A stretch of 37,462 nucleotides of DNA, taken from the IMG/VR virus record IMGVR_UViG_2778261530_000007; one strand, 5' to 3'. Under the pieces are notes generated by a model that saw only the letters and a program-made list of their open reading frames with translations, did not search any database and was not told the DNA's origin. This DNA comes from a virus. Lineage: Duplodnaviria > Heunggongvirae > Uroviricota > Caudoviricetes. The translations under genes were made by a program, and so were the position numbers. Shown here piece by piece: positions 1,063 to 10,983 of this stretch. Position 1 is the first letter of the stretch; each line of letters opens with the position of its first letter.

Positions 1063-1404
1063 TCAGCCAACATTGCGGCCTGATCGGGGTGATTTTTGGG
1101 TAATACCGATTGAAACCTGATCGCCCTCCGACTGAATAGAGCCATCAAGAGAGAGAGCCGGGGCAACCTGCCCGGCAGCGGGAAATGTTTTGTCGTGAAG
1201 TATCCACATAGTGTATTTTTCGAATCGCTCGACTTGGATTACTTTTTCTACAACCTCAATTCGCGCAGGTTTATATCCAGACTCATAATTCCCTATAGTC
1301 CCTACAGAAACCCCCGTTACTTGCGAAAACTGAGATTGTGTAAGTTTTTCTGCATTTCTGATCGCCTTTAGTTTTTTGGCGTAATCTCTTGACATGTTCA
1401 CCAT
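1063..1404 (-). CDS. Immunity repressor, HTH XRE/Cro-CI type (P2 C / 186 CI functional analogue)
   Basis: HTH motif LTQSQFSQVTGVSVGTIGNYESG; sits between int and a divergently transcribed cox-like gene; GAGG ribosome-binding site upstream of ATG at 1404. Confidence 0.75.
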   Translation of the reverse strand: MVNMSRDYAKKLKAIRNAEKLTQSQFSQVTGVSVGTIGNYESGYKPARIEVVEKVIQVERFEKYTMWILHDKTFPAAGQVAPALSLDGSIQSEGDQVSIGITQKSPRSGRNVG

Positions 1405-5051: not shown

Positions 5052-5255
5052 ATGAACAAAAAGACCTGGTTTCGCGCATACATGTGGGCGCTGGTATGCG
5101 TCCTCGTTTCTCTCATTCTGTATGCAGGACTACTCCCCCGAATGATTTCATCAGACAGCTCCTTCCTGGTATTGCTGGGCATTTTCATTGCCATGCTGTA
5201 CCCGGCAGGCGTTGTTCGCCTTTTCAGTAAGTACATCAAGGAAATCAAACAATGA
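5052..5255 (+). CDS. Small membrane protein with two predicted TM helices (67 aa); possible partner of the downstream SPFH protein
   Basis: Two hydrophobic stretches (WALVCVLVSLILYAGLL and FLVLLGIFIAMLYPAGVV); stop overlaps the SPFH gene start (ATGA). Confidence 0.55.
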   Translation: MNKKTWFRAYMWALVCVLVSLILYAGLLPRMISSDSSFLVLLGIFIAMLYPAGVVRLFSKYIKEIKQ

Positions 5256-6082
5256 AGAAATTCAAACTCTTTCAGATTATCCCTCTTTTTGCCGCCATCC
5301 TGCTGGTTGGTTGCGATCGTGTTGAGCCAGGTAATGTGGGCATCAAAGTCAACAAACTGGGCGACGATAAAGGCGTCGGTGAAGTGGTTGGTGTTGGCCG
5401 CTACTGGACTGGCTGGAATACCGAGGTTTACATCTTCCCGACCTTCAAACAAATGAAGACCTACGATGAGCCGTTCAGCTTCCAGATGAGTGACGGCACA
5501 ACCATCGGCTATCACATCGGTGTGGCCTACAAGGTTGATCCATCCAAAGTTACTACAGTGTTTCAGACCTACCGCAAAGGCGTGGATGACATTACCGACA
5601 CTGACCTGCGCCAGAAGATAGCCGACGCACTCAACCGACTGGCCAGCAAAATGACCACCGACAAATTTATCGACGGCGGGAAATCTGAACTACTGGATGC
5701 AGCTCTTAAAGACATTCAGGAGGAAATGACACCCATCGGTATTCAGGTAATGAGCCTCTCATATGTGGGTAAGCCGGAGTACCCGTCAACCGTTATCGAC
5801 AGCATTAATGCCAAAGTCACGGCAAACCAGAAAACCCTGCAACGCGAACAGGAAGTCAAGCAACGTGAAGCAGAAGCCAACATGTTGCGCGCAGAAGCTG
5901 CCGGACAGGCTGATGCGATTCGCACAAAAGCCCAGGCTGAAGCCGACGCTATTCGTTTACGCGGTGAAGCTCTGCGCCAGAATCCCGGCGTTATGGAGCT
6001 GGAAGCAATCAACAAATGGAACGGCACGCTGCCGCAATACATGACCAGCAATACCGCTGTTCCGTTTGTTCCGGTGAAGTAA
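5252..6082 (+). CDS. SPFH/band-7 (prohibitin/flotillin-like) domain lipoprotein
   Basis: Lipobox signal peptide ending LLVGC; SPFH-like core followed by an Ala/Glu/Gln-rich coiled-coil (EQEVKQREAEANMLRAEAAGQADAIRTKAQAEADAIRLRGEA). Confidence 0.8.
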   Translation: MKKFKLFQIIPLFAAILLVGCDRVEPGNVGIKVNKLGDDKGVGEVVGVGRYWTGWNTEVYIFPTFKQMKTYDEPFSFQMSDGTTIGYHIGVAYKVDPSKVTTVFQTYRKGVDDITDTDLRQKIADALNRLASKMTTDKFIDGGKSELLDAALKDIQEEMTPIGIQVMSLSYVGKPEYPSTVIDSINAKVTANQKTLQREQEVKQREAEANMLRAEAAGQADAIRTKAQAEADAIRLRGEALRQNPGVMELEAINKWNGTLPQYMTSNTAVPFVPVK

Positions 6083-6088
6083 TTAAAC

Positions 6089-6113
6089 CCGGCCAGTGAA
6101 AATCACTGGCCGG
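6089..6113 (+). terminator. Strong stem-loop (11-bp stem CCGGCCAGTGA / TCACTGGCCGG) just after the SPFH gene
   Basis: Perfect inverted repeat read from the sequence; a T-run follows about 10 nt downstream. Confidence 0.5.
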
Positions 6114-6250
6114 AGCAGTATCAGGATTTTTTAGTATGCCGTTCTCACAAAAAAACCGCTTGCCATGCCGCAATCAGTCAGGTTACATTTCCGCTGCACC
6201 TCATAAAACGGGTGCCGGGATTGGAACCCCGCTGACAACCAAAGCGCACA

Positions 6251-6270
6251 ACCGCGCCAGCGGTTTTTTT
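6251..6270 (+). terminator. Rho-independent terminator (ACCGCGCCAGCGGT followed by T7)
   Basis: GC stem followed directly by TTTTTTT. Confidence 0.55.
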
Positions 6271-6449
6271 GTGCGTACCGTATCGCCACGTCGTTTTCGC
6301 ACACGAATTATGGTGGGGCGTATGGGGCCGACTTCGGTCGGGCCGGGTTCTTTGGTTGCCGGTAGTTCCAACCCTGTACGTCTCACCACCCCGAGCTTGG
6401 AACCTCTGGATGGTGAGTTTTCAAAACTTACAACCAAAGAGGCCACACC

Positions 6450-6680
6450 ATGGCAAACCGCAAACAACAGCGCACATACGCTGCGCGTCGTCACATCCAG
6501 ACTGAAATCAACCGCAGACTTTTCCGCGCATTCCGCGTCGCGCAAATCATGCACATCAATATGCTGCATGAGCGCAGCCACGCACTATCAAACATTTATT
6601 CCGCCTCTGTTTTCAGCTATCTGGCAGATGATCTGCGCGAGCTTCAGCAGCTCATCCAGCAGCAAAACAAACTCCATTAA
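6450..6680 (+). CDS. Hypothetical basic protein (76 aa)
   Basis: ORF with AAGAGG RBS about 8 nt upstream of ATG. Confidence 0.5.
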   Translation: MANRKQQRTYAARRHIQTEINRRLFRAFRVAQIMHINMLHERSHALSNIYSASVFSYLADDLRELQQLIQQQNKLH

Positions 6681-6752
6681 TTCCTGTTCCGGGCCTTTCC
6701 TGCACCTTGCGGCGGGAGGCCTTCGCACATCTGTAACAAGAGGATTGCCGCA

Positions 6753-7118
6753 ATGATTCTCGCCAACGACTTTCTTGAATACCTGCTCAACACAGAGCGT
6801 GATCTTGCCGCTCGCGTGCGTGATCGTTATGACATGTACCTGAAATCCCTGCCTGTACCGCAGCTCGCTGACGGAAAGATTGTTATTGATGGTCGCTACA
6901 TGATTGACAGCCACGAGGGAAATTACAGGCTTTACCGCATTGAAGGTGGCACCCCGTCCATTATTGGCATTTACCAGCGCCCATCCTCTGCAATCGTCGA
7001 TGTGATTGCCGACAGCATCCGCATCACACATCGCCATGCCGACACAGAAGACACCGTGCTGGAAATTCAGCGGCTGGCTACAGTCTGCCGCGACACCCTG
7101 TATGGCATGACGAAGTAA
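6753..7118 (+). CDS. Hypothetical protein immediately upstream of gene A (121 aa)
   Basis: ORF in operon context. Confidence 0.55.
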   Translation: MILANDFLEYLLNTERDLAARVRDRYDMYLKSLPVPQLADGKIVIDGRYMIDSHEGNYRLYRIEGGTPSIIGIYQRPSSAIVDVIADSIRITHRHADTEDTVLEIQRLATVCRDTLYGMTK

Positions 7119-7124
7119 ATCACT

Positions 7125-9947
7125 ATGACGGCAGAGTACATCAGGGACTGGCAACAACCGCGCCACGCAGTGGGGCGTGAAGGAACGGGGATCCCCGCTC
7201 CTGAATCCGCGCTTTCCTCCTGGCTGGATGCCTACCGGGCAGAGAACGAGCGCCGCCAGGAAATGGCTGATGCGGCGTTCTCCGCCACGCCGCTGGGCAA
7301 CCTGATTAATAAAAACCTGGACGCACAGGAAAAACAGGACAAAACCATCACACTGGCAGGAGACGCCAGAAAACAGGCACGCGGCGCGGTGGATGAAGCC
7401 ATGGCCTCGCTGCGCCTGCTGCCGTCCTATCTGCGCGATCCGCTTATTCGCCACCTCTCCTTCCTGCGCAAAAAACAGGAAGCCGATCGCCGGAAAGGCA
7501 AAAAGAGCTGGCAGGCGGAACGCTATGCACGCGGAACCCTGCGCAAAATATTCGAACGTCTGGATCGCACTGACGGACACTGGCTGACACCGGGTTATCG
7601 CTCCCTTGCCGGACGCGAACGCCTGGACGATTTGCTTTACCTGCCGCAGCTCAACAAACACCAGATACAGACGCTGGCCACCATGACGGCGGCGATGTTC
7701 AGCAGCACCTTCGAAAAACTCTGCGATGGCTTTGGCGCGACCGATGGCGAACTGACCATGGATGTAACGCTGAAGGCGTATCAGATGCTGGCCCGCATGG
7801 CGTTACACCTGCACATCATGCCTCCACATTATGACGCACTGACAACAGATAAAGACCGGAGGAACGAACCGGACACGGAGCTGCTGCCGGGCGCAATCCT
7901 TCGCCTGACCTGTGCGGAATGGTGGAAACGCAAACTGTGGCTGTTACGTTGCGAGTGGAGAGAAGAACAACTCCGCGCCGCCTGTCTGGTTTCCAGAAAA
8001 ACATCACCCTATCTGAGCCAGGACGCGTTAAGCGAGTTTCGCGCACAGCGCGAGAAAACACGCGATTTCCTGAAAAGTTTCATGCTGGAAAACGAAGACG
8101 GGTTCACGATTGATCTCGAGACAGTGTATTACGCGGGAGTAAGTAACCCGGTTCACCGTAAGGCAGAAATGATGGCCACCATGAAGGGGCTGGAACTTCT
8201 GGCCGAAGCCCGTGGCGACAAAGCGGTGTTTCTGACTGTCACCTGCCCGTCAAAATACCACGCCACAACAGAGAACGGTCATCCGAATCCCAGATGGAAC
8301 GGGGCCACCATGCGCGACTCCAGCGATTACCTGGTTAACACGTTTTTTGCAGCGGTCCGCAAGAAACTGAACCGCGATGGCCTGCGCTGGTATGGCATCC
8401 GCACGGTGGAGCCTCACCATGACGGCACCGTGCACTGGCATATGATGGTCTTTGCTCATCCGGAAGAAATCGACAGCATTGTGGCCATCACCCGCGATAT
8501 TGCCATTCAGGAAGACCGCCACGAGCTGGGCGATGACATAACTCCGCGTTTTAAGGCGGAGTACGTAGACGGCTCAAAAGGCACACCAACCAGCTATATC
8601 GCGACCTACATCGGAAAAAACCTGGACAGCCGCGCCGTGGATGGCATCGACCCGAAAACGGGCAAGCCACGCGTTGACCACGAAACCGGAAAATCAATGG
8701 CAGAGAGCGTGGAACGCGCCATCGGCTGGGCGCGCCTTCACCGGGTCCGCCAGTTCCAGTTCTTTGGTATCCCCTCCCGTCAGGTGTGGCGTGAACTGCG
8801 TCGCCTTGCCAGCCAGATGGCACGCAACCCGGAAGGCCCGCAACGGCTGAAGGATGACGCAATGGACTCGGTTCTTGCTGCCGCTGATGCCGGATGTTTT
8901 GCCACCTACATAGAGAAACAGGGCGGCGTACTTGTTCCACGCAAAGACTACCTGATTCGCACCGCCTACGACCTCGCAGATGAGCTGAACGATTACGGCG
9001 AACAGAGCGTACAGATTTACGGGATCTGGTCACCACTCATCGGGGAATCCTCCCGTGTGTGCACGCATCCGGATAACTGGAAGCTGGTAAGACGTAAACC
9101 AGAACCGGAAGACAACGCCCACGAAAATGGTTTTGACCTTCAGGGCGGCCCTGCCGCCCCTTGGACTCGTGGCAATAACTGTCCCCGTGTACAGGAAACG
9201 GACAACAACGGGACAGAACAGCCGGAAGAACGGCCAGCACCGTGGCCGCAGCTCCCTGACGGCGTTGAAGTGAACGAATGGATGCGCTCACTGAAACGGC
9301 ACGAACGCCGGGCGCTGATGCGTTCGCTTCGTGACAAACAGGCAAAAAACAGCAGTGATGAAATGCAGAGCTGGACACAGAGCCGCAAACAGCAGCGGCC
9401 TTTGCCTGATAACCACGAATTACTCGCTAAAGAATGGCGGGAGTCTGCTGAATCTCTCGGCCTGCATATCGGTGAACAACAGATGCAGCACCTGTTACGG
9501 GGCGGCAGTCTGTACGTTGACGGCAGCATCATTGCACCGCAGGGATTTGAAATTGTACGCAAACCGGATACCCGCCCGGACAGCCGAATCACGCAGCTCT
9601 GGCAGCGCCTGAGCCGTAATCATGGCGTAAGCAGCACGGAGATCCGCCATAACCCGGTCGCCAGCTATCTGGCACAGCTGGGGGCATCAGACCCTGAAGC
9701 CGCCGCACGCCTGGCATCCACACTTCAGCAGGACCAGAACACCATGAAAACACCCGTTACCGTGCTTTCTGACATGCTGCGCGCCATCCGCGACGCAGAG
9801 CACGCACAGAGAATCAGTGAAACCACTGAACGCGCCAGCCGCAAAGCAGACCTGCTGCGGGGTGGCCTGACCAGTGGAAACAAAAAACAGACAGAAACGG
9901 GACTCACGAATCCCGTAAATGAGCAAAAAACGTGCCGCGATATATGA
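7125..9947 (+). CDS. A: Replication initiation endonuclease (P2 gpA family, rolling-circle nickase); 940 aa with a long C-terminal extension
   Basis: HUH-type metal motif (TVHWHMMVF) and paired-tyrosine active-site motif (YIATYIGKN); position after the early genes. Confidence 0.9.
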   Translation: MTAEYIRDWQQPRHAVGREGTGIPAPESALSSWLDAYRAENERRQEMADAAFSATPLGNLINKNLDAQEKQDKTITLAGDARKQARGAVDEAMASLRLLPSYLRDPLIRHLSFLRKKQEADRRKGKKSWQAERYARGTLRKIFERLDRTDGHWLTPGYRSLAGRERLDDLLYLPQLNKHQIQTLATMTAAMFSSTFEKLCDGFGATDGELTMDVTLKAYQMLARMALHLHIMPPHYDALTTDKDRRNEPDTELLPGAILRLTCAEWWKRKLWLLRCEWREEQLRAACLVSRKTSPYLSQDALSEFRAQREKTRDFLKSFMLENEDGFTIDLETVYYAGVSNPVHRKAEMMATMKGLELLAEARGDKAVFLTVTCPSKYHATTENGHPNPRWNGATMRDSSDYLVNTFFAAVRKKLNRDGLRWYGIRTVEPHHDGTVHWHMMVFAHPEEIDSIVAITRDIAIQEDRHELGDDITPRFKAEYVDGSKGTPTSYIATYIGKNLDSRAVDGIDPKTGKPRVDHETGKSMAESVERAIGWARLHRVRQFQFFGIPSRQVWRELRRLASQMARNPEGPQRLKDDAMDSVLAAADAGCFATYIEKQGGVLVPRKDYLIRTAYDLADELNDYGEQSVQIYGIWSPLIGESSRVCTHPDNWKLVRRKPEPEDNAHENGFDLQGGPAAPWTRGNNCPRVQETDNNGTEQPEERPAPWPQLPDGVEVNEWMRSLKRHERRALMRSLRDKQAKNSSDEMQSWTQSRKQQRPLPDNHELLAKEWRESAESLGLHIGEQQMQHLLRGGSLYVDGSIIAPQGFEIVRKPDTRPDSRITQLWQRLSRNHGVSSTEIRHNPVASYLAQLGASDPEAAARLASTLQQDQNTMKTPVTVLSDMLRAIRDAEHAQRISETTERASRKADLLRGGLTSGNKKQTETGLTNPVNEQKTCRDI

Positions 9948-10023: not shown

Positions 10024-10983
10024 ATGAAAATTTGTATCGACGACGGCTCCACCAACATCAAGCTGGCATGGACTGAGAACGGCGAACGCCGCAACGCCAT
10101 CAGCCCGAACAGCTTCAAGTCGGAATGGTCTGCGCCGTTCGGTGGCACGCAGCCCGCGAACTACATGCTTGATGGCGTGCGCTATGGTTTTGATCCGGTC
10201 AGCGATCGCTTTGTCCAGACGACCGACACGCAATACCAGTACAGCGATGTGAATGTCATTGCCATTCATCACGCGCTGGTCAAATCAGGCATCACGCCAC
10301 AGGAGGTGGATGTGGTTGTCACCCTGCCACTGAGCGAGTATTTCGACACAAACGCACAGCCGGACATAGCCAACATCAACCGCAAAAAAGCGAACGTTAT
10401 GCGCCCGGTGGAGTACCAGAACGGCGAAGCATTCACTATCCGTAACGTGCGGGTTATGCCTGAATCCATTCCGGCTGGCTTTAAGGCACTGGCTGACATG
10501 AGTCCGTTTGAATCCCTGCTGATTGTGGATTTGGGCGGAACCACGCTGGATGTGGCAAAGGTTCAGGGGCAACTGGCAGGTATCAGCCAGGTGTTTTGCG
10601 ATCCACACGTAGGCGTTTCTATGATGGCCGATGCCGTACTGTCGGTGATGGCCACTAACGGTATGCGCACCAGTCACCACATCGCCAATACCATTATCGA
10701 ACATCGCCATGATGAAGCCTGGCTGCGCCAGCACATCCACAATGACGCGCATTACGCCAGCCTGATGGCGGTTATTCGTGAAAAGGAAGAAACACTGAAA
10801 CAACGCGTGATCCGCGCACTGGCGGGTTTTTCGGGTTACGGGCGGGTGATGGTTGTCGGTGGCGGGGCGGAGATTGTGGCACCCGCTATCCGCGAAGCCT
10901 GCGGAGTTAATGCGACTTTCATCGCGGACGGGGTGCCACAGTTTGCTCTGGTTAATGGGCTGTACGCAATGGACAAGGAGTAA
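10024..10983 (+). CDS. parM: ParM/StbA-family actin-like segregation ATPase
   Basis: Strong similarity to plasmid R1 ParM as recalled (ICIDDGSTNIKLAW, ISPNSFK, YQYSDVNV, VMPESIPAG, DLGGTTLDV, GGGAEI, LVNGLY). Confidence 0.88.
   Translation: MKICIDDGSTNIKLAWTENGERRNAISPNSFKSEWSAPFGGTQPANYMLDGVRYGFDPVSDRFVQTTDTQYQYSDVNVIAIHHALVKSGITPQEVDVVVTLPLSEYFDTNAQPDIANINRKKANVMRPVEYQNGEAFTIRNVRVMPESIPAGFKALADMSPFESLLIVDLGGTTLDVAKVQGQLAGISQVFCDPHVGVSMMADAVLSVMATNGMRTSHHIANTIIEHRHDEAWLRQHIHNDAHYASLMAVIREKEETLKQRVIRALAGFSGYGRVMVVGGGAEIVAPAIREACGVNATFIADGVPQFALVNGLYAMDKE

Follow-up and report, generated by a model that had tools for sequence, protein, structure and literature searches.

What is encoded between positions 6083 and 6449 of the viral record IMGVR_UViG_2778261530_000007 (37,462 nt, Caudoviricetes; this whole stretch of DNA is called the window below)? 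The segment runs over 367 bp (not the ~330 bp given in an earlier note made from the letters alone), from the stop codon of an SPFH/Band-7 gene to the ATG of a 76-codon open reading frame (ORF, 6450-6680). The RefSeq and GenBank records that we inspected either leave it blank or carry at this place a pseudogene called "ash family protein", a "transcriptional regulator" or, on the minus strand, a hypothetical protein. Our analysis suggests, with a probability that we would put at about 80%, that positions 6160-6449 constitute the RNA immunity module of a P2-like prophage of the P88 type (Xuanwuvirus), homologous to the modules of P4, Gifsy-1 and P1/P7. The case is built from sequence and comparison, i.e. 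from the RNA fold, the promoter-terminator architecture, the complementarity of short segments, the covariation of these segments with their targets, and the overlap of one target (a2) with a ribosome-binding site.

Two RNA families in one noncoding stretch

A scan of the entire window against Rfam returned exactly two matches above the gathering score (GA), isrK and the C4 antisense RNA, both located in this stretch. The isrK match (RF01394; 69.5 bits vs a GA of 50, E-value 4.9e-13) spans model positions 1-77 and coincides exactly with the ~75-nt small RNA that the earlier note had proposed for a promoter-terminator unit, whereas the C4 match (RF01695; 84.4 bits vs a GA of 45, E-value 2.2e-15), covering the full length of its model (positions 1-87), had gone unrecognized. 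IsrK is equivalent to seqA, and C4 to the CI RNA, of what has been termed P4's "IsrK-C4 immunity system", related systems being present in P1, P7, N15 and lambdoid prophages (PMC3632133, PMC4825925). Taken together, IsrK, C4 and the two downstream targets described in the next section identify a single known regulatory module.

The individual elements that the earlier note had pointed out are present, at or within 2 nt of the positions that it gave (all coordinates are collected in Table 1). The -10 element of the promoter can be read either as TTACAT (6183-6188, 17-nt spacer), as it had been originally, or as TACATT (6184-6189, 18-nt spacer), the reading chosen by a consensus scan (9 of 12 matches); the -35 element is TTGCCA (6160-6165) in both cases, and the predicted transcription start is at ~6196. 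Since such promoter-like sites occur here at one per 3 kb compared to a mean of 1.3 in shuffled sequence, the match is not significant on its own and requires outside support. This is provided by the relatives of the locus, where most of 80 distinct loci keep a TTGnnn/TAnnnT pair at a near-constant distance 5' of IsrK hairpin 1 while the spacers have diverged, an argument far better than the single-sequence scan. No LexA box was seen by eye near the promoter, in positions 6120-6200.

At the level of sequence, the promoter and the intrinsic terminator would together yield the ~75-nt transcript characteristic of isrK. Hairpins 1 and 2 of IsrK show compensatory changes among 85 distinct relatives, 60 of which have a T-run of at least 5 after the terminator hairpin; folded alone, the RNA attains a z-score of only -1.8. 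An alternative assignment of the leader to the c4-a1b1 family (RF03163) was rejected at 19 bits vs a GA of 46.7, with isrK providing the better fit.

The C4 RNA has the layout of a long closing stem enclosing two inner hairpins followed by a single-stranded segment (b'). Its minimum free energy (MFE) fold, computed for the C4 alone, is identical to the consensus fold (-43.6 kcal/mol, z = -3.8), and none of 200 shuffled sequences folds as well. Among 77 distinct sequences, 95-100% are paired at most positions of the C4 helices, and 10 of the 12 pairs of the closing stem, as well as four of the five pairs of the first inner hairpin, display from three to five standard pair types; pairs fixed by our search pattern carry no covariation information. 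Hence, compensatory changes in related loci, proposed earlier as a check, are found in the helices of both RNAs. The first inner hairpin is the UUCG hairpin that the earlier note had singled out. The hairpin does exist, albeit not as a separate element but as a part of the C4 RNA, and the outer G-C pairs once attributed to it belong to other C4 helices.

The 3' strand of the C4 closing stem contains an ACCACC motif (6385-6390). The overlapping CUCACCA (6382-6388) can alternatively pair with UGGUGAG (6411-6417), which repeats the 5' strand of the same stem further downstream, between b2 and a2, and is invariant in four aligned close relatives; the fold predicted for the read-through transcript makes use of this second pairing.

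Recognition segments and their targets change together

The C4 RNA carries two recognition segments, a' in the loop of the second inner hairpin and b' downstream of it, each of which has a complement on either side: upstream within IsrK (a1 and b1) and downstream of the C4 (a2 and b2). The exact complements comprise 10, 9, 7 and 7 nt, and the duplex energies amount to -18.2 kcal/mol for a'/a2, -14.2 for a'/a1, -10.4 for b'/b2 and -16.6 for b'/b1. It is this 88-nt RNA, complementary to sites on both of its sides, that was missing from the original interpretation of the stretch, which had the small RNA and the artefactual nature of the long ORFs right. The a2 target overlaps the Shine-Dalgarno sequence AAGAGG (6437-6442) of the 76-codon ORF, the first gene 3' of the RNA module, 9 nt before its ATG at 6450. 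The same arrangement recurs among relatives: of 72 distinct loci in which a2 is clear, 71 have an ATG 2-12 nt (mostly 9-10 nt) further on, and the ORFs thus opened have a median length of 76 codons.

To what extent the complementarity is specific to each locus was assessed with 60 distinct a'/b' combinations with full flanks, requiring a perfect complement of at least 7 nt. In its own flanks, a segment found its complement in 70% (a, upstream), 75% (a, downstream), 98% (b, upstream) and 87% (b, downstream) of cases, compared to only 3-5% when the same segments were matched against the flanks of other loci. Within each lineage the complements are placed at closely similar offsets.

The same relationship is apparent at short range in a four-way alignment of the window with P88, P88_4B11 and UTI89. 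The promoter, hairpin 1, the terminator, the C4 stems, the Shine-Dalgarno sequence and the ATG are near-invariant, while the six recognition elements change in a coordinated manner. Between the window and P88, 18 of the 21 differences fall inside these six elements, which occupy 63 of the 311 nt. In P88 and P88_4B11, b2 changes jointly with b' and b1; in UTI89 the b elements are as in the window and the a elements are different. The near-identical P88-type phage loci L001 (P88, 5028-5225), L002 (4051-4248) and L125 (UTI89) differ almost exclusively in their a and b elements.

By analogy with P1, P4 and Gifsy-1, the a and b elements are the likely determinants of immunity specificity. As both a and b elements differ between the window and P88, the two are predicted to be heteroimmune at the RNA module.

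Table 1. Features of the RNA module and of the genes surrounding it (positions in the window)
Feature	Position	Strand	Basis or remarks
SPFH/Band-7 gene	5252-6082	+	PF01145, 1.8e-30
Strong 12-bp hairpin, terminator-like, upstream boundary of the module	6088-6114	not assigned	terminator scan
Sigma-70-type promoter, equivalent to PisrK or P4 PLE	6160-6189	+	TTGCCA, 18 nt, TACATT
IsrK/seqA-type leader small RNA, 75 nt	6196-6270	+	Rfam RF01394
IsrK hairpin 1	6196-6215	+	isrK fold
IsrK hairpin 2, with b1 (6221-6227) in its loop		+	isrK fold
a1, single-stranded in IsrK	6236-6244	+	complementarity to C4
Intrinsic terminator	6250-6270	+	6-bp stem AACCGC/GCGGTT (6250-6265), T7 run ending at 6270
C4/CI-type antisense RNA, 88 nt	6306-6393	+	Rfam RF01695
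UUCG hairpin CCGAC-UUCG-GUCGG, first inner hairpin of C4	6328-6341	+	C4 fold
Second inner hairpin of C4, loop = a'	6347-6358 (pairing core 6349-6358)	+	C4 fold
a' UCUUUGGUUG	6349-6358	+	targets a1 6236-6244 (in IsrK) and a2 6431-6440
b' GUUCCAA	6365-6371	+	targets b1 6221-6227 (in IsrK) and b2 6397-6403
b2 target UUGGAAC	6397-6403	+	complement of b'
a2 target CAACCAAAGA (6431-6440)	element 6431-6443	+	10-nt perfect complement of a'
Epsilon-like "derepression" protein gene, 76 aa, putative anti-repressor	6450-6680	+	PF25738, phrog_3688
orf121	6753-7118	+	phrog_3237, 4.6e-54; separates the epsilon-like gene from gene A
P2-type replication initiator gene A (HUH nickase)	7125-9947	+	PF05840, 3e-131

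The putative target gene

The protein encoded by the 76-codon ORF matches the Pfam family PF25738 (Derepression) above the cut-off (3.2e-7) as well as phrog_3688 (2.9e-45), and shares 30% identity (E-value 7e-9) with the epsilon protein of P4. That it is translated is consistent with the distribution of variable sites in 6450-6680, which in 23 loci from a P2-like context fall onto the three codon positions of the epsilon frame as 37, 30 and 60 of 77, i.e. with a coding signature. In related loci the next gene, orf121, is encountered together with the epsilon-like gene and gpA. Gene A, further downstream, is probably the distal (polar) target of the RNA module.

Proposed mechanism: repression or activation

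The scheme outlined here is modelled, from RNase P processing onwards, on what has been described for P1, P4 and Gifsy-1 (PMC12197685, PMC4825925). Transcription would initiate at ~6196, and most transcripts would end at the intrinsic terminator to give a 75-nt IsrK-like RNA bearing b1 and a1, with only the read-through transcripts including the 88-nt C4 fold. RNase P may then excise C4 from the read-through transcript, and C4 would block translation of the epsilon-like anti-repressor in trans; the loss of translation combined with Rho-dependent polarity would silence orf121 and gene A, not only in the lysogen but also in any homoimmune phage that superinfects it. A role as leader or decoy, competing for the C4 segments, is envisaged for IsrK (or for the a1/b1 leader in cis), and the extent of terminator read-through would set the IsrK:C4 ratio and, hence, the switch, as was shown for Gifsy-1. 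The steps adopted from these systems are also based on what Citron and Schuster, as well as Deho and Ghisotti, have reported.

Several considerations weigh against this repression scheme. The sequence leaves the direction of regulation unsettled, the IsrK of Gifsy-1 being an activator of downstream translation and the C4/CI RNA of P1 and P4 a repressor. The polar effect on gene A is pure inference, and the epsilon-like function rests on the above 30% identity and on a PF25738 score of 30.4 bits vs a cut-off of 27. Finally, as the element already possesses a P2-type C/Cox switch, the need for a second layer of immunity is unexplained.

The predicted MFE fold of 6196-6475 pairs IsrK (6217-6244) with C4 (6350-6374). 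This pairing, which speaks for the RNA module as such, is the equivalent of the "structure A" of Gifsy-1 and makes an activator model a live variant. Structure A has been demonstrated experimentally in Gifsy-1 (PMC4825925). According to this model, the module would, as in Gifsy-1, work first and foremost as a switch for activation: pairing between the middle of IsrK and C4 would keep the read-through mRNA silent, the short IsrK acting in trans would open the structure, and translation from the AUG at 6310 would drive the downstream genes by coupling, the repressor activity of free C4 being secondary. Apart from the predicted fold, this is supported by a pair of AUGs (6310 and 6322), 12 nt apart, which resembles the two AUGs of the Gifsy-1 orf45, and by the frame from 6310, which is open for 148 codons and in most P2-context loci ends in the ATGA of the orf121 start. 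On the other hand, this frame, unlike orf45, reads past the point where the first downstream gene starts, with no stop close to it, and would bypass the epsilon-like gene altogether. It is interrupted in L089 and L014, two divergent loci, is not preceded by an evident Shine-Dalgarno sequence, and does not account for the variation within 6450-6680, which by codon position fits the epsilon frame only. Moreover, the overlap of a2 with the Shine-Dalgarno sequence, seen in 71 of the 72 loci, suggests that what has been conserved is repression at a2. We therefore consider a predominantly activating module distinctly unlikely.

The 148-codon frame itself (6310-6756, plus strand) begins with an AUG on the 5' side of the C4 stem, at the place where the translated orf45 starts in Gifsy-1. 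It covers the epsilon-like gene in its entirety, in the +1 frame, and terminates within the ATGA at the start of orf121. It is open over 147-150 codons in 20 out of 24 distinct loci with an epsilon-like gene, and synonymous recoding of the latter leaves it open in 11% of trials. Its conservation is probably incidental. Given that the openness of the longer ORF to which it belongs (6136-6756, see next section) is statistically unusual, we retain as a low-probability side hypothesis, speculative at present, that the frame may be translated and couple expression to orf121 and gene A, bypassing the epsilon-like gene.

The long ORFs do not reflect a protein

Public annotation offers a quite different reading, in which the 206-codon plus-strand ORF 6136-6756 is a genuine transcriptional regulator of the "Ash family", as the labels in RefSeq/PGAP, Pfam and PHROGs would have it. 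Indeed, its translation matches the Pfam family Phage_ASH (PF10554; 8e-8, 33.1 bits vs a cut-off of 26) and PHROG "transcriptional regulator" families (~1e-20), and PGAP places an "ash family protein" at the RNA locus. In addition, some plus-strand frame is open across the entire RNA region in 62 of 97 distinct related segments, and 6136-6449 stays open in only 1.9% of shuffles.

The Phage_ASH match, however, extends over residues 17-111, equivalent to nt 6184-6468, which is exactly the two RNAs plus a2. That the immunity factor of P4 is an RNA reportedly emerged from the Ghisotti/Deho laboratory. The same Pfam model matches, at 3.2e-19, the translated seqA-CI region of phage P4 (L003, 8390-8704), i.e. 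a locus where the immunity factor is known to be an RNA (PMC4825925, PMC3632133). The variable sites show no 3-nt periodicity over the RNA region (8/7/6 in IsrK, 8/9/8 in C4 and 9/10/9 in the a2/b2 spacer, for the same 23 loci as above), which agrees with the earlier view of the stretch as noncoding. The C4 core is 40, 41, 42 or 43 nt long among relatives, and 35 of the 97 segments have no open plus-strand frame at all. As regards the ORF itself, its ATG at 6136 lies upstream of the promoter, and its frame crosses the intrinsic terminator and overlaps the entire epsilon-like gene out of frame; PGAP, for its part, marks the "ash family protein" as an incomplete pseudogene. The coordinated changes at six sites are explicable only as RNA-RNA pairing. 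A real Ash-type regulator thus appears highly improbable, and we rejected Phage_ASH as a translated, selected protein domain on account of the missing codon periodicity, the inconsistent frames and the match to the P4 RNA region.

The family matches of the plus-strand ORF arise because these families appear to be built on translations of the conserved RNA locus: Phage_ASH and several PHROG "regulator" families are probably translations of RNA genes, or anti-repressor ORFs that have been over-extended at the N-terminus into the RNA. The minus-strand ORF 6201-6581 has no match in Pfam or PHROGs, and was rejected as a gene given that the minus frame is open in only 17 of the 97 relatives. Both long ORFs are therefore artefacts, as was already stated in the earlier note, except that the plus-strand ORF owes its existence to a conserved RNA rather than to base composition.

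The notion that chance hairpins and a chance promoter-like site are all there is, with no RNA function beyond termination of the SPFH transcript, can draw on the shuffle-level frequency of the promoter match and on the weak z-score of IsrK folded alone, but is already refuted by the Rfam matches (E-values of 1e-13 and 1e-15), by the covariation within helices and between segments and targets, and by a matching stretch in 1462 out of 5426 complete E. coli genomes, so that we grant it practically no chance.

The host element and the upstream boundary

At the DNA level, the region shares 94% identity with Escherichia phage P88 (Peduoviridae, Xuanwuvirus) and ~90% with further phages of this genus. 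The element is a complete P2-like prophage with head and tail genes, i.e. a phage of the helper type, as integrase, C-type repressor (a helix-turn-helix protein; 1063-1404, minus strand), Cox, gene A and portal genes are all contained in the window. A P4-like satellite as the host, for which an alpha primase and sid/delta/psu genes but no structural genes would be expected, was considered and rejected in view of the PF05840 family of gene A, the portal gene and the identity to P88.

The SPFH/Band-7 gene, immediately 5' of the RNA module, has its best PHROG match in a family labelled as lipoprotein. It is present in P88, UTI89 and strain E423 and is absent from the corresponding place in P88_4B11, which makes it look like a moron insertion, bounded by the hairpin at 6088-6114. 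This hairpin is the SPFH terminator of the earlier note; it is indeed strong, but was scored as a terminator on the minus strand only, the T-run on the plus strand (6127-6132) beginning 12 nt after the stem.

Directly 3' of gene A, a gene at 10024-10983 (plus strand) encodes a ParM/StbA-type actin-like segregation ATPase (PF06406, 3.6e-82; PF21523, 1.8e-68), which phage records label as "recombinase" or "plasmid partition protein". Its presence hints at a plasmid-like maintenance stage.

Distribution among relatives

A search of viral contigs with a pattern for the invariant C4 core yielded 120 stretches which, together with the window and P88, make 122 instances. Gene A is found downstream in 26 of them, 25 of which also have the epsilon-like gene; three further instances have the epsilon-like gene and no gene A within the sequence covered. 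The alpha gene of P4 follows in 17 instances, and in the remaining 76 none of the queried window or P4 genes occurs within 6 kb downstream. Three of these 76 sit on contigs of ~90 kb. On contigs of this size, L008, L038 and L068, the C4 RNAs share the b' of the window (GUUCCAA) and have different a' loops.

The P2-context loci display 10 a'/b' combinations made from seven a' and six b' variants, which shows that the elements are mosaic and predicts several RNA-determined heteroimmunity groups. As to cross-immunity between helpers and satellites, no a'/b' combination was common to P2- and P4-context loci among the 122 instances, which is a weak negative. Beyond viral contigs, the E. coli genomes with a matching stretch include UTI89, whose copy is 95.7% identical, and in 1092 of the 1462 the match covers at least 80% of the 661-nt query. 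Neither RNA is present in the early regions of the prototype phages P2 and 186. Within the searchable papers, the P88 paper and papers on the genomics of P2-like phages contain no mention of an antisense RNA, IsrK or epsilon; the module is thus undescribed in P88-type phages in those papers, although the kind of system is well known.

The general understanding of such systems is accordingly unchanged by our findings. Their significance lies elsewhere: the identification of IsrK and C4 corrects the public annotation of the stretch, places a P4-type cassette of RNA immunity and epsilon inside a phage of the helper type (the prototypes P2 and 186 being devoid of these RNAs), predicts RNA-determined heteroimmunity groups among otherwise near-identical prophages, and opens a testable route to the control of the anti-repressor and the replication gene in P88-type prophages. 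In a broader perspective, the P4-type cassette of P88-type, P2-like phages might gate an epsilon-type anti-repressor and a replication initiator as a second, RNA-based layer of immunity and induction on top of C/Cox, with many mosaic specificities. We offer this extension tentatively, as a possible but rather doubtful one; if true, the RNA layer could decide on prophage induction and on the cross-talk of co-resident P2-like helpers with P4-like satellites.

Comparison with known systems

With the isrK - orf45/STnc1160 - anrP locus of the Salmonella prophage Gifsy-1 the window shares a short terminated IsrK accompanied by a read-through mRNA (PMC4825925), a middle part of IsrK that is complementary to a C4-like segment further downstream (structure A), AUGs on the 5' side of the C4 stem, and a downstream gene of the anti-repressor type. 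The differences concern the downstream protein (AnrP in Gifsy-1, the 76-aa epsilon-like protein in the window), the ORF that starts in C4, which in the window continues beyond the point where the next gene begins, and the type of element, which is lambdoid in Gifsy-1 and P2-like here. Furthermore, no AntQ-type antiterminator is known near the module of the window.

The immI operon of P1 and P7 (c4 - icd - ant) has in common with the window the C4 fold, the pairing of a' and b' with a2 and b2 at the ribosome-binding site of the first small ORF, and the a1/b1 copies upstream (RF01695, RF03163; PMC12197685). A further parallel lies in specificity differences that result in heteroimmunity (PMC12197685), which for the window is a prediction. 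Unlike in P1/P7, the upstream a1/b1 leader of the window is a terminated RNA of the IsrK type, in line with its low RF03163 score. We did not assign the locus to the P1 immI type, as no Icd or Ant homologues are encoded downstream in the window, where the ORFs match PF25738, phrog_3237 and Phage_GPA only.

In P4, isrK (8692-8615) is followed by C4 (8507-8420), according to Rfam in the same family order as in the window, and both RNAs fall into a region annotated as "cI gene product", with epsilon, orf151, orf106 and alpha following downstream; this region, too, was historically misread as a "cI/Ash" protein ORF. P4 is a satellite with an alpha primase as its replication gene, whereas the module of the window resides in a P2-like phage that is complete, head and tail genes included, and has a P2-type nickase A. 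The spacing also differs: IsrK and C4 are separated by 35 nt in the window vs 108 nt in P4, and the end of C4 is 57 nt away from the epsilon ATG vs ~245 nt in P4. The short distance in the window brings a2 onto the Shine-Dalgarno sequence, while the downstream target of P4 covers the start of small nested ORFs. In both elements the two recognition segments of an antisense RNA recur as targets upstream and downstream of it, and the operon proceeds from the RNA module through an epsilon homologue and small ORF(s) to a distal replication gene. By this organization the window contains an immunity operon of the P4 type, with a replication gene of a different family, gpA in place of alpha.

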